Virus record (IMG/VR): IMGVR_UViG_2663762849_000001
Strand: one strand, 5' to 3'
Length of the DNA stretch: 9,380 nucleotides
Origin: a virus
Taxonomy: Monodnaviria; Loebvirae; Hofneiviricota; Faserviricetes; Tubulavirales
Part shown: in pieces, positions 109-9,380 of the stretch
Layout of the letters: every line of letters starts with the position of its first letter
Position numbering within the stretch: position 1 is the first letter of the stretch
Program-made: the position numbers and the translations under genes
The notes under the pieces: generated by a model
The model's input: only the letters and a program-made list of their open reading frames with translations
The model's database searches: none
What the model was told of the DNA's origin: nothing

Positions 109-2124
<2,016 letters not shown>

Positions 2125-2154
2125 CTGAATTTTTAACATTGAGGAGTCTGATTT

Positions 2155-2580
2155 ATGAATCAAATTTACGACAGTTTTCCGTTTCCTTCCCCTGAGGGTT
2201 TTACCTCAGGCATGACAATGGCGGGATATTTTATTCACGTCACTGTCATAAATGATGAGGAGTTAAAACCCACGGGTTCTCATTATAACCCTGAGGCTAA
2301 ACCCAAATATGCCATTGTTATTGCCTATCCGTATGAGGACCGAAAATTAAAAGTCCGCCGTGAGGAGCATGAGCGCTTTTCCTGTACTGAGGAGGATTTT
2401 AAATTTTTTAATTCATGTCCTGATTTGCAGGGCAAACCTGTTTATCTCACGGTGGATGTTAACTCATGGGCGACAGGCTCAGAACGTCATGGTGTCTGGT
2501 ATCGTTTTATTTCCGGCTCCATGAAACGTTTTGACGGTCAGCCGCTGGGTGCACTGCCCGCAGGTAAAGAAAAAGGCTGA
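2155..2580 (+). CDS. Putative ssDNA-binding protein (gene V-like by position), 141 aa
   Basis: Strong RBS GAGGAG (2141-2146) 8 nt before ATG 2155; position immediately after Rep as in Ff phages; C-terminal segment GKPVYLTVDVNSWA loosely resembles the beta-hairpin region of M13 gVp. Longer than canonical gVp (87 aa), so the assignment is tentative. Confidence 0.5.
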   Translation: MNQIYDSFPFPSPEGFTSGMTMAGYFIHVTVINDEELKPTGSHYNPEAKPKYAIVIAYPYEDRKLKVRREEHERFSCTEEDFKFFNSCPDLQGKPVYLTVDVNSWATGSERHGVWYRFISGSMKRFDGQPLGALPAGKEKG

Positions 2581-2584
2581 TGAT

Positions 2585-2725
2585 ATGTCTGACGCTGATT
2601 TTCTGAACTTTGTTTTATTTGCTGCGCCTGCAATGATTTTATTTTCTTCAGGTTTTGGCATCGGAATAAAACTGATTCGCGCCTGTGACTCACAAAGCAT
2701 TACTGTTCAGCGTTATTATGACTGA
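2585..2725 (+). CDS. Small hydrophobic membrane protein, 46 aa (pVII-like minor coat protein candidate)
   Basis: ATG at 2585 follows the upstream stop (2578-2580) by 4 nt; one predicted transmembrane stretch (FLNFVLFAAPAMILFSSGFGIGI); position between the gV-like and coat genes. The ORF track's 2531 start overlaps the upstream gene by 50 nt and is less likely. Confidence 0.45.
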   Translation: MSDADFLNFVLFAAPAMILFSSGFGIGIKLIRACDSQSITVQRYYD

Positions 2726-2888
2726 ATTTGATTTCAGCGGTGTTTTATCCGCACTGAATTCTGGCGTACAGGACGGGGAGCTTTACTGGTCCGTTCTTTA
2801 TGTCTGGATTGTCTGCTGGCTTCTTGGCTTTGGTCTTGGTGTTATTTTCACTCTGGTCTGCCGGATGTTCAGTGATGCTGTTAATTAA
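2718..2888 (+). CDS. Small hydrophobic membrane protein, 56 aa (pIX-like minor coat protein candidate)
   Basis: ATG 2718 overlaps the stop of the preceding small ORF (translational coupling); single hydrophobic helix (LYWSVLYVWIVCWLLGFGLGVIFTLV). An alternative GTG start at 2685 is given by the ORF track. Confidence 0.45.
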   Translation: MTEFDFSGVLSALNSGVQDGELYWSVLYVWIVCWLLGFGLGVIFTLVCRMFSDAVN

Positions 2889-2894
2889 TTTTAA

Positions 2895-3155
<261 letters not shown>

Positions 3156-3170
3156 TAGTTATTTAACGAC

Positions 3171-3194
3171 AGCGCCCTCCGGGGCGCTTTTTTA
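3171..3194 (+). terminator. Rho-independent terminator after the coat gene
   Basis: Stem AGCGCCC (3171-3177) / GGGCGCT (3182-3188) with loop TCCG, followed by a T-run (3188-3193); same position as the post-gVIII terminator of Ff phages. Confidence 0.65.
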
Positions 3195-3206
3195 ATCATA
3201 CCAGGA

Positions 3207-4571
3207 GTGTTTTGTTTGATTCACTTTATTATTCCGCTTCTGTTTTTGTTCTTTTCCTCGTTTTCTTTCGCTGAAGAGAAAGAAAATCCGGATGCACTTG
3301 TTCAGTGTGCAGGCCATTCATCCTGCAGGACAGATTATTCGGACGCGGGGACGTCGATTAAATTAGCCAGGGCGGCCGGTCATCTTTTCTGTGGTTCGGG
3401 CAGTTATGACGCATGTTCCGGAATAATTCATTATTGTGGTGTGCCACTTTCAACGCCTGTTAATGCACCTTCGACTGTCGGGTCTTTTGTCCGTGCCCGG
3501 TGGTCAGCATATAAAGTCTGGGATTCAGACAAGCAAAAGTGGACAGCCTGCACCCTTGCTTTTCAGGGTGGTGAGGGGGATTTGACACCTGAATATAATA
3601 AGCCGCCAACTGACGAGATTTGTCTTTCTCGTCCGGTTCTTGATGGTATGACTTTTTCTGATGTTTATAAAGGTGATGACGGGACCCGTTATGTTAATGT
3701 GCAGGGGTGTATTTATGAGGCAACCGGTAATCCTCTTATTTGTAATCCCGATGATGATACAGTTTGTACTGCCGACTGGAAACCAGTTGCTGTAGATCCT
3801 GCATTCTCCGATGGTAAGGAGGATGGCGGTAGCTCAGGTGGTGGCAGTTCCGGTGGTGGTAACCCAGGCGGCGGCAGTTCCGGTGGTGGTTCAGGTTCTG
3901 GCTCCGGTGGTTCATCCGGTAGCGGTGGCTCCGGCTCGGGTTCCGGCGGCTCATCCGGCAGTGGTGGTTCAGGTTCTGGCTCCGGTGGTTCATCCGGTAG
4001 CGGTGGCTCCGGCTCGGGCTCCGGCGGTTCATCCGGTAGCGGTAGTTCAGGTTCAGGATCCGGTGGCTCATCCGGCGATGACAATGGCTGGCTTGATGGT
4101 ATTTTGGGCTGGTTAAAAACAATATGGGTGTCAGTGAATGATTTAAATAATGCTTTTTCTGTTTCTCAGGCTGATATGAATAATGCATTAAATTCACTGG
4201 ACAATGGTATTAAAGATATTAGTCAGAATATAGCTTCTTCTTTGCCTGATGGGGATTTCCCTTTAGGGGAGCTTTCGCATTACTTGCCAGGACAGGGAAG
4301 TGAGAGTCATGATAATAACAATTGGCTTACAGTTAATATTGACAAACTGGTAAATACAAATAATGGAACTGCTCTTCCTTTTATTTTACAATTTAGCTTT
4401 GATCTTCCGTTGATTGGCGCTATTAATTTCAAGATTGATACAAGCCATTTTGCAAAAGCTTATGACGATTATGTTCGTTCTGTTCTTGAATATGCTATTT
4501 ATATGATAACCATGTTACGCGTTTTTGTTATTTCTCGCCGTACATTATTTGAACGTGAGGTAAAACTCTGA
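3207..4571 (+). CDS. Adsorption / minor coat protein (pIII-like), ~454 aa: signal peptide, Cys-rich N-terminal domains, Gly/Ser-rich linker, C-terminal anchor
   Basis: N-terminal signal peptide ending SFSFA-EEKE; many Cys in the first 200 aa; long GGSSGGG/SGSGSGG linker; size and position after the coat gene. Start uncertain: GTG 3207 overlaps the AGGAG RBS (3203-3207); TTG 3214 has better spacing. Confidence 0.8.
   Translation: MFCLIHFIIPLLFLFFSSFSFAEEKENPDALVQCAGHSSCRTDYSDAGTSIKLARAAGHLFCGSGSYDACSGIIHYCGVPLSTPVNAPSTVGSFVRARWSAYKVWDSDKQKWTACTLAFQGGEGDLTPEYNKPPTDEICLSRPVLDGMTFSDVYKGDDGTRYVNVQGCIYEATGNPLICNPDDDTVCTADWKPVAVDPAFSDGKEDGGSSGGGSSGGGNPGGGSSGGGSGSGSGGSSGSGGSGSGSGGSSGSGGSGSGSGGSSGSGGSGSGSGGSSGSGSSGSGSGGSSGDDNGWLDGILGWLKTIWVSVNDLNNAFSVSQADMNNALNSLDNGIKDISQNIASSLPDGDFPLGELSHYLPGQGSESHDNNNWLTVNIDKLVNTNNGTALPFILQFSFDLPLIGAINFKIDTSHFAKAYDDYVRSVLEYAIYMITMLRVFVISRRTLFEREVKL
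3826..4076 (+). repeat. Intragenic Gly/Ser-coding tandem repeat in the pIII-like gene (13-aa units SGSGSGGSSGSGG; DNA period ~78 bp, about two and a half copies)
   Basis: Near-identical 78-nt blocks (ggttcaggttctggctccggtggttcatccggtagcggtggctccggctcgggYtccggcggYtcatccggYagYggt) are visible directly in the sequence. Confidence 0.8.
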
Positions 4572-4930
4572 TGTGGGCCATTTTAGGTGCTTTTTTTGTT
4601 GATGTTGTTTTAAAATCACTACGTTTCATTGCAGGAGTTATCGGTGATAAAGCTGTTGCATGGGCTAAGCTCCTTTCTTATCTTGGTCTTTGCTACACTT
4701 CATATTATGCTCTTGTATCTGCCGTCAATTTTATTATTCGTCAAATCTCCGATGTTAATAAACTCGATGTTATTGTAGTTGCATTCAGTTACCTTCCTTT
4801 AAATATTCAGTACTGTTTTAATATCATCCTCCATGTTCAATTTATTTCATACATATATCTTTATAAGGATAGAGTGTATCGATTGGTTTATGATTTATTT
4901 AAATCAAATGGGCTTAATGTTGGCAAGTAA
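4571..4930 (+). CDS. Minor coat protein (pVI-like), 119 aa, hydrophobic
   Basis: ATG 4571 overlaps the pIII-like stop (TGATG, coupling); strongly hydrophobic, AT-rich; size and position match gene VI of Ff phages. Confidence 0.65.
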   Translation: MWAILGAFFVDVVLKSLRFIAGVIGDKAVAWAKLLSYLGLCYTSYYALVSAVNFIIRQISDVNKLDVIVVAFSYLPLNIQYCFNIILHVQFISYIYLYKDRVYRLVYDLFKSNGLNVGK

Positions 4931-4944
4931 TTTTGCGGGGGTAA

Positions 4945-6150
<1,206 letters not shown>

Positions 6151-6160
6151 GACAGAGGAC

Positions 6161-7915
<1,755 letters not shown>

Positions 7916-7944: not shown

Positions 7945-9162
<1,218 letters not shown>

Positions 9163-9215
9163 GTGCCGACCGGGATTATCAGGACGCGGCATCTCAGTTT
9201 ACCCACCACAACGTC

Positions 9216-9243
9216 AGTGCGCATAATGTATATTATGTTAAAT
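9216..9243 (+). other. dif-like XerC/XerD recombination site (phage att site or prophage-chromosome junction)
   Basis: AGTGCGCATAA-TGTATA-TTATGTTAAAT matches E. coli dif GGTGCGCATAATGTATATTATGTTAAAT (recalled from memory) at 27 of 28 positions. Confidence 0.8.
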
Positions 9244-9380
9244 TGCCTGTGAAGGTCCTTTACTTCACCATTCACATCCACACACAGATAAATCAATACG
9301 TTGTGATTTCTGACTTCCCTCCCGTTTCGGTAGAAAAATTCAACCTCTGTTCAGTGATGGCACACCATAGACCATGAGTT

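Follow-up and report, generated by a model that had tools for sequence, protein, structure and literature searches.

The window, which is the whole stretch of 9,380 bp analyzed here, corresponds to the complete contig CCBY01000485.1 of the draft assembly GCA_000936105.1, and both of its ends are therefore contig breaks. An exact search with the Rep protein led to this single contig, the coordinates of which are those of the window. Its plus strand carries an inovirus gene set recognized by Pfam and PHROG matches, which comprises Rep, pIII-like, pVI-like, Zot/pI, and secretin/pIV proteins. The contig stops 123 bp upstream of rep, inside the promoter/operator region (positions 1–123). The 666-residue replication initiator (124–2124) is a gpA-type rolling-circle nickase (Pfam Phage_GPA, E = 3.8e-48; phrog_91 "nicking at origin of replication", E = 1e-127). 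It is followed by a gene called in the source record for a conserved 141-residue phage protein of no known function (2155–2580; phrog_30648, E = 1e-95), and by another called gene, a small open reading frame of 80 residues (2913–3155). The product of the latter has no family match in Pfam or PHROG and is a candidate major coat protein, judging from its size and its position in the inovirus gene order. The pIII-like attachment protein (3216–4571) has Gly/Ser-rich tandem repeats and matches Pfam Phage_Coat_A (E = 6.6e-9) as well as PHROG attachment and virion structural families; 39/78-bp tandem repeats are located in its gene at 3883–4075. The next called gene (4571–4930) encodes a minor virion protein that is pVI-like by position and has a weak match to phrog_1944 (E = 1.6e-4). 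The assembly ATPase Zot/pI (4948–6150; Pfam Zot; phrog_1675 "morphogenesis (protein I of M13)", E = 1e-49) and the pIV secretin (7954–9162; Pfam Secretin, E = 9e-25; phrog_1012 "assembly (protein IV of M13)", E = 2.5e-114) complete the set. A rolling-circle Rep, a pIII-like protein, Zot/pI, and a pIV secretin, encoded on one strand of a genome of approximately 8–10 kb, place the phage among the inoviruses.

The genes of Zot/pI and the secretin are separated by a 339-bp tandem repeat on the plus strand (6164–7915), for which Tandem Repeats Finder (TRF) reports 5.2 copies with 98% matches. The repeat unit opens with approximately 57–66 nucleotides resembling the primosome-assembly site ssiA of ColE1, and its first approximately 66 nucleotides have matches of 82–95% in over 2,000 small plasmids of the ColE1 type. 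Related phages have either one copy of the short ssiA-like segment or 2.2 copies of the 339-bp unit. The repeat lies outside the integration site.

The dif-like site and its chromosomal flank

The stop codon of the secretin gene is separated by 53 bp (9163–9215) from the dif-like site AGTGCGCATAATGTATATTATGTTAAAT on the plus strand (9216–9243), as had been described in an earlier reading made from the sequence only. The query was the 28-bp dif of E. coli, GGTGCGCATAATGTATATTATGTTAAAT, the sequence of which was checked in the Nissle 1917 chromosome. The site is identical to it at 27 of the 28 positions, and the lone mismatch is a change from G to A at position 1 (9216). This is the sole match in the window, and a match with three or fewer mismatches was found in none of 200 dinucleotide-preserving shuffles, so the resemblance to dif that the earlier reading had reported is borne out. 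The site is composed of the XerC-binding arm AGTGCGCATAA (9216–9226), the central (overlap) region TGTATA (9227–9232), and the XerD-binding arm TTATGTTAAAT (9233–9243). A 28-mer scan of both strands revealed no second dif-like site in the window, including positions 1–123, where the sequence-only reading had also seen none. Segments of 11 nucleotides resembling the XerC arm occur at 973, 5077, and 2755 (minus strand); they lie inside genes, and because the central and XerD parts that accompany them are unrelated to those of dif, they were treated as chance matches.

No integrase or recombinase domain was detected in the plus-strand genes or in the longer minus-strand open reading frames of the window, which agrees with the earlier statement that an integrase gene is missing from it. 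The phage is expected to extend beyond the left edge of the window, since in its relatives a further 0.7–1.1 kb of phage DNA is located between attL and rep, and this stretch contains only small open reading frames (62–70 residues) or an HTH repressor. The absence of an integrase of its own, which is one of the properties defining integrative mobile elements exploiting Xer (IMEX), thus applies to the window, with the left 0.7–1.4 kb of the phage lying outside the contig. The second property, insertion at dif with a dif or dif-like junction, is evident from the 27/28 site, its flank, and the chromosomal location of the relatives.

The sequence from 9217 to 9380 is 100% identical to the chromosomes of Nissle 1917, ATCC 25922, APEC O18, NU14, LF82, and other phage-free B2 strains of E. 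coli. The matching stretch in Nissle 1917 and APEC O18 is the native dif GGTGCGCATAATGTATATTATGTTAAAT together with its right flank, and the order of the empty locus in these two strains is hipBA, dif, and a cluster of esterase, LysR, and SDR genes, with phage genes absent nearby. The possibility that CUS-1 resides at the dif of APEC O18 was rejected, because the locus is empty there; it was therefore used as an empty-site control. The identity of 9217–9380 to the chromosome of phage-free strains identifies the site as an attR and positions 9244–9380 as host DNA, with a flank of the phylogroup B2 type from the side on which the acetylxylan esterase, LysR, and SDR genes are located. Two origins had been proposed for 9244–9380 in the sequence-only reading: host chromosome, which is upheld, and the gIV–gII intergenic region of a circular genome, which is excluded by the same identity. 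Similarly, its suggestion that the left junction lies outside the window holds, since the contig ends 123 bp before rep, whereas the alternative of a circular form is contradicted by the chromosomal nature of 9217–9380. Alignment of the right end to the host dif region, which it had recommended as a check, yields a prophage–chromosome junction with inovirus genes to the left of the site and chromosome to the right, in accordance with its proposal of an integrase-less prophage at dif.

Two sequence differences enable the exchange point to be located. Position 1 of the site is G in the empty B2 strains and A at every phage–phage junction of the relatives, and the sequence after ATAA is TGTG in the phage attP1 and TGTA in the chromosomal dif. 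The similarity of the window to phage–phage junctions ends at 9229, after the common TGT, and resumes at approximately 120–125, whereas the identity to the phage-free chromosome begins at 9217. Therefore, the switch from phage to chromosome occurred within 9217–9229, an interval that extends into the central region of attR and includes the XerC cleavage position 9226/9227. The XerC arm of attR is derived from the phage, as its A at 9216 corresponds to the allele of the phage, and the XerD arm is chromosomal, being identical to that of the native dif, whereas the phage attP1 has TTATGTTGAAA in its place. The combination of A or G at dif position 1 with TGT|G or TGT|A provides an annotation rule that separates attL, attR, and phage–phage junctions. 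In strain 100416 (L006), attL has G, and the phage–phage junction and attR have A. In strain E100341 (L007) and in L010, position 1 of attL is A instead of G, which is not predicted by the simple model.

Taken together with the relatives described below, the site at 9216–9243 is, with high probability, the attR of an integrase-less inovirus prophage inserted at the dif of E. coli by CTXphi-like integration.

Attachment sites of related prophages

Related prophages with 90–98% sequence identity are present in approximately 15 complete E. coli genomes, and the closest relatives are 93–99.8% identical to the window across rep and the secretin end. The prophages in complete genomes sit between hipA and fimbrial genes, often in tandem. 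L006, which is 98.4% identical to window positions 125–6898, has two tandem copies, flanked by hipA on one side and by the fimbrial genes ydeR/ydeQ on the other, and the two tandem copies of L007 likewise lie between hipA and fimbrial genes. The attL of L006 (position 270) reads ...ttggtttatgtt GGTGCGCATAA TGTGACACGCG TTATGTTGAAA, followed by a 34-nucleotide stem-loop and TTTATACATAA CGTCA TTGTGCGCACT. The phage–phage junction (9009) reads ...cccaccacaacatc AGTGCGCATAA TGTGACACGCG TTATGTTGAAA and continues in the same way as attL, and attR (17748) reads ...cccaccacaacatc AGTGCGCATAA TGTATA TTATGTTAAAT and continues into the chromosome. The same junction anatomy is found in L007, L002, and the IMG/VR contigs L012, L014, and L015. 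The three IMG/VR contigs are 97–99.8% identical to the secretin end of the window and have the secretin end, a forked site, and rep in succession; L015 is a complete, circularly permuted genome of 8,135 bp. The final 53 bp of phage DNA preceding the site in the window (9163–9215) also precede the attR or attP1 sites of L006 (9009 and 17748), L007 (10513), L012 (1177), L014, and L015 (320), and when the phage is circular or in tandem they directly adjoin attP1 on its 5′ side.

The junction contained in 9140–9243 is present at 99–100% identity in at least six complete E. coli chromosomes. The exact junction was counted in 7–8 of 5,426 complete E. coli genomes, and approximately 30 more of these genomes have ends of related phages fused to dif. 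Scans of species-representative genomes for the forked-attP pattern and for relatives of Rep each gave no match, and the taxonomic spread observed is therefore limited to E. coli and the IMG/VR contigs. A small number of enteric E. coli isolates of African and Japanese origin carry the phage backbone at dif, and the window copy is located in a B2-type chromosome.

Each close relative that was analyzed, in total 8 sequence variants at 13 loci, has two inverted dif-like sites in a region before which the window ends. The site attP1 is formed by AGTGCGCATAA, the 11-nucleotide spacer TGTGACACGCG, and TTATGTTGAAA, and attP2, which is on the other strand, is formed by AGTGCGCACAA, a 5-nucleotide spacer, and TTATGTATAAA. 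The two sites are 34–35 nucleotides apart. In the predicted fold of single-stranded attP, the XerC arms of the two sites pair with each other through ten Watson–Crick pairs and one G-T pair, the XerD arms are likewise paired, and the central region of the hairpin has a bulge formed by six nucleotides from the attP1 spacer. The fold of the plus strand has a free energy of −40.4 kcal/mol over 121 nucleotides (z = −10.6) and −33.4 kcal/mol over 94 nucleotides (z = −8.9). The minus strand of the 94-nucleotide segment reaches −28.4 kcal/mol (z = −6.2); its hairpin is weaker because the G-T wobbles of the plus strand become C-A mismatches. The excess stability calculated for the plus strand fits folding of the packaged plus strand. 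Six of the 38 consensus pairs have compensatory changes across the 8 sequence variants (13 loci), and two of these six are central-region pairs adjoining the XerC arm. All the compensatory changes originate from one divergent variant, and the covariation is therefore thin but consistent.

The overlap sequence TGTGACACGCG of attP1 and TGTATA of dif have TGT in common on the XerC side, and differ on the XerD side, where GCG is opposed to ATA. Homology to dif is thus located solely beside the XerC cleavage site, as is characteristic of attachment sites of the CTX type. Also in agreement with this type, the 3′ end of the prophage bears a regenerated dif of the functional kind, as seen in the window, and an attP-derived 5′ end is observed in the relatives.

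Integration mechanism

The site in the window had been regarded in the sequence-only reading as canonical and duplex-type rather than as a CTX-like forked hairpin, and this was considered to constrain the mechanism of integration. This argument fails, since the site is attR and not attP, and the attP of the relatives is forked. The attR produced by CTX-type integration is always a regenerated canonical dif, and attR therefore cannot tell the mechanisms apart.

From the anatomy of the sites and the published work on CTXphi, we infer that the integrase-less prophage at dif exploits XerCD of its host. The packaged plus strand would carry attP1 and attP2 in inverted orientation, and their pairing would generate the forked hairpin attP(+), to which the host XerC and XerD would bind. 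A single strand exchange with dif would then be carried out by XerC where the XerC arm meets the central region, and the resulting pseudo-Holliday junction would be resolved by replication. The left product of the reaction would be a non-functional hybrid, located beyond the contig, that consists of the chromosomal XerC arm followed by the attP1 spacer, the loop, and attP2. The right product would be a functional dif assembled from the phage XerC arm and the chromosomal central region and XerD arm, which corresponds to the site in the window. In the lineage of the window, XerC and XerD would thus act on single-stranded DNA.

Integration of the CTX type is most likely, rather than integration of the duplex type. 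In the latter, exemplified by VGJphi, the replicative form would carry only one dif-like attP, in duplex form, which would recombine reversibly with dif through catalysis by XerC and would leave an attR of identical appearance. With the attP end of the phage outside the window, attR by itself is equally compatible with this mechanism, and the named phages with the nearest Reps are fs2 and VFJ (29% identity), of which fs2 is counted among the VGJ-type elements, which have a duplex attP (PMC4246890). However, in every close relative 11 nucleotides lie between the arms of attP1, compared with the 6-bp spacer of dif, because of which attP1 is expected to be a poor duplex substrate. Furthermore, attP1 of the relatives is always accompanied, 34–35 nucleotides away, by the inverted second site with its 5-nucleotide spacer, and the two sites form the strong hairpin, with its greater stability on the plus strand and its compensatory changes. 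The relatives also form tandem arrays with intact attP1 and attP2 between the copies, in the manner of CTXphi. A duplex mechanism of the VGJphi type is therefore improbable.

An assembly artefact, in which the phage contig was misjoined to the chromosomal dif through the 14 common bases GTGCGCATAATGT, would be conceivable for a draft contig, given that attP1 and dif have 13–14 identical bases in common. Nevertheless, the same junction is found in the complete E. coli chromosomes mentioned above, and an overlap of 14 bases is shorter than the k-mers typically used in assembly; we regard a misjoin as very improbable, and even if the phage were episomal in the strain of the window, the biology of the lineage would be unchanged. 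That the window is instead a linearized free phage genome (replicative or virion form) with a dif-like site of its own, in which 9244–9380 would be the gIV–gII intergenic region, is hardly credible despite its length of 9.4 kb, which is similar to that of inovirus genomes: 9217–9380 is the dif-side chromosome of phage-free strains with no phage genes there, circular and tandem relatives read GACACGCG after ...ATAATGT and not ATATTATGTTAAAT, and positions 1–123 and 9244–9380 form no joined sequence known from the relatives.

The CTX-type reading is based on a well-described system. The attP1 of CTXphi is AGTGCGTATTA-TGTGGCGCGGCA-TTATGTTGAGG with a 12-nucleotide spacer starting with TGTG, and its inverted attP2 is AATGCGTATTA-TACGCCA-TTATGTTACGG with a 7-nucleotide spacer (PMC3089051). 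The hairpin attP(+) of CTXphi is joined to dif by a single strand exchange catalyzed by XerC (PMC3442271, PMC3089051). The overlap regions are homologous to dif on the XerC side only (PMC3089051, PMC3442271), and the role of XerD is only structural because the overlap regions lack homology beside the XerD site. Once the pseudo-Holliday junction has been converted by replication, the prophage is flanked by a new functional dif and, at its opposite end, by non-functional sites derived from attP (PMC3442271, PMC3089051). CTXphi resembles the lineage of the window in being an integrase-less inovirus at dif that regenerates a functional dif downstream of its last phage gene. The relatives have in common with CTXphi a long-spacer attP1 starting with TGTG (11 nucleotides in the relatives), a short-spacer inverted attP2 (5 nucleotides in the relatives), a plus-strand forked hairpin with a bulged overlap and homology to dif on the XerC side only, tandem arrays, and, adjoining attP, a repressor module that is transcribed divergently. 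By contrast, the host of CTXphi is V. cholerae, the dif of which begins with AGTGCGTATTA..., whereas that of E. coli begins with GGTGCGCATAA..., and the loop between the sites is approximately 90 bp long in CTXphi and 34–35 nucleotides in the relatives. The phage of the window also differs from CTXphi in having the 666-residue gpA-type nickase Rep and a secretin of its own, and in the absence of toxin genes. CTXphi uses the host EpsD as its secretin.

Inoviruses that integrate at dif of enterobacteria have been described previously. CUS-1 and YpfPhi are listed as CTX-type, whereas fs2 is listed among the VGJ-type elements with duplex attP (PMC4246890). The YpfPhi prophage has a regenerated, intact dif at its 3′ end, together with inverted XerC/XerD sites, and is arranged in tandem (PMC4266046). 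CUS-1phi from E. coli O18:K1:H7 and YpfPhi from Yersinia pestis thus resemble the lineage of the window as enterobacterial CTX-type inoviruses at dif with an intact dif at the 3′ end, an inverted XerC/XerD pair, and tandem copies (PMC4266046, PMC4246890, PMC3089051). Their core genes, as set apart by the published descriptions, appear to be different from those of the window. The UPphi group (UPphi901 and relatives; Shapiro & Putonti 2020) has internal repeat junctions that match no more than approximately the first 15 bases of dif (PMC7307601), and this signature of approximately 15 bases, which corresponds to the XerC arm with TGT, is the one seen in the lineage of the window. Like the lineage of the window, UPphi phages are dif-integrated tandem inoviruses of E. 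coli and other Enterobacterales. They have three reverse-oriented open reading frames beside the dif end and the gene II/V module of YpfPhi (PMC7307601). The UPphi phages differ from the phage of the window in being IKe/I2-2-like with the YpfPhi-like gene II/V module, whereas the window Rep is gpA-type.

Phage backbone and immunity module

The backbone of the phage appears to differ from those of the described dif-integrating inoviruses of enterobacteria. A megablast search of the whole window against deposited phages (INPHARED/GenBank) gave no match, and the nearest deposited Reps, from the Vibrio phages VFJ, fs2, and Vaf1, have approximately 29% amino acid identity over 76–85% of the protein. 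In light of both results, the backbone has no close match in the INPHARED/GenBank collection, whereas the integration module is familiar. Like the phage of the window, fs2, VFJphi, and Vaf1 are integrative inoviruses; however, they are very distant in sequence, and fs2 has the VGJ-type duplex attP as opposed to the forked CTX-type attP of the relatives of the window.

The left end of the window has a different affiliation from that of the remaining sequence. Positions 1–123 are unlike the regulatory region of the relatives that have the same rep, to which similarity starts at approximately 120–127. Instead, the 128 bp upstream of rep are 88% identical to the region that separates gene II from a divergently oriented HTH repressor gene in L005 and L013, which are dif-integrated filamentous prophages of a different type. 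The phage of the window is therefore mosaic in its immunity module. By gene content, L005 and L013 look like UPphi or a related group, and the gene II/V module of YpfPhi corresponds to the 371-residue Rep and the single-stranded DNA-binding protein of L005 and not to the 666-residue gpA-type Rep of the window. The break of the contig at position 1 may have been caused by a co-resident phage with the same regulatory module.

Because its regulatory module differs from that of the relatives with the same rep, a left end like theirs is not guaranteed in the window copy. Modules of both the L006 type and the L005/L013 type are located directly beside a forked attP of the same kind, and for this reason the window copy, too, probably has a forked attP at its left end, by extrapolation from the relatives. 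A variant in which the left end of the window copy has a duplex attP is less likely; if true, it would imply switching of the attP type within one phage lineage.

Since the CTXphi paradigm in E. coli and the presence of CUS-1, YpfPhi, and UPphi at dif were already known, the prophage adds little to the mechanism of integration. It documents the same forked attP in combination with a distinct phage backbone that has a gpA-type Rep and its own secretin, and indicates that attP and immunity cassettes are exchanged modularly between unrelated inoviruses at the common dif locus. We tentatively propose, as a possibility slightly short of even, that the phage represents a third lineage, not yet described, among the inoviruses that integrate at dif of enterobacteria. 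Such a lineage would combine a gpA/fs2-like Rep and its own secretin with a PriA-type ssi amplified as the 339-bp repeats and an acquired forked attP of the CTX/CUS type, and there would be an exchange of immunity modules between it and the UPphi/YpfPhi-like phages that reside in the same dif array.

Tandem repeats in the phage genome

Between zot on one side and the secretin gene on the other, the plus strand of the window contains 5.2 copies of a tandem repeat with a 339-bp unit (6164–7915), which are 98% identical to each other. The first 57–66 nucleotides of every unit form a segment with 82–95% identity to sequences in over 2,000 small ColE1-type plasmids. The short segment is identical in 47 of 57 positions to the sequence located 3′ of the origin in pBR322/pUC (CCGCTCGCCGCAG...GAGGAAGCGGAA), in the same orientation and on the plus strand. 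We take this plasmid sequence to be ssiA, the n′-pas site for PriA primosome assembly. The short segment is present once in three of the related filamentous prophages and contigs (L002, L007, and L015), and the related tandem prophage L006 contains 2.2 units. The 339-bp repeat may be the minus-strand origin of the phage, multiplied in the copy in the window.

Within the pIII-like gene (3824–4075), there are tandem repeats rich in Gly and Ser, with lengths of 30, 39, and 78 bp. Their copy number differs among the relatives, with extra copies in, for example, L012. This pattern has also been reported in the g3p protein of UPphi phages.

Regulatory module upstream of rep

The region upstream of rep (1–123) represents a different immunity or regulatory module from that of phages with the same rep. 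Its sequence shares 88% identity with the promoter region that separates gene II from an HTH repressor in another type of dif-integrated inovirus (L005, 5433–6128; L013). The mismatch with the rep-sharing phages, together with the similarity to the other inovirus type, points to modular exchange, in which regulatory modules would have been swapped between dif-integrated inoviruses. Heteroimmune rstR variants exist in CTXphi, and the putative exchange in the window is analogous to them.

Integration at dif and a possible remnant on plasmids

Several different elements share dif arrays, as seen in L002 and L005. A second element in L002, located 5′ of the related prophage (1–2880), has a truncated fragment of a secretin in addition to a "replication initiation factor" protein that is RstA-like. 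In L005 (4200–5020), two forked attP sites that differ from each other are positioned in tandem. The spacer of one of them starts with GAT instead of TGT, which leaves it without overlap homology to E. coli dif.

The chromosome-side XerC arm of attL begins with G in four relatives (L006, L009, L016, and L017), as expected for a crossover proximal to the XerC arm. The arm begins with A, the phage allele, in L007 (2013) and L010 (6966). This A could be left over from a previous integration or loss, or could reflect polymorphism in the host.

The IncF plasmid NZ_CP062900.1 (L018, 9000–9054) carries an end fragment of a filamentous phage joined to the dif-like site AGTGCGCATAA TCTATA TTATGTTAAAT. 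The same fusion is present in about seven similar plasmids. All these plasmids, including NZ_CP062900.1, come from pig E. coli and are 141–165 kb in size. The fusion seems to be the remains of an attR carried by a plasmid. The phage fragment of these plasmids is truncated by IS elements.
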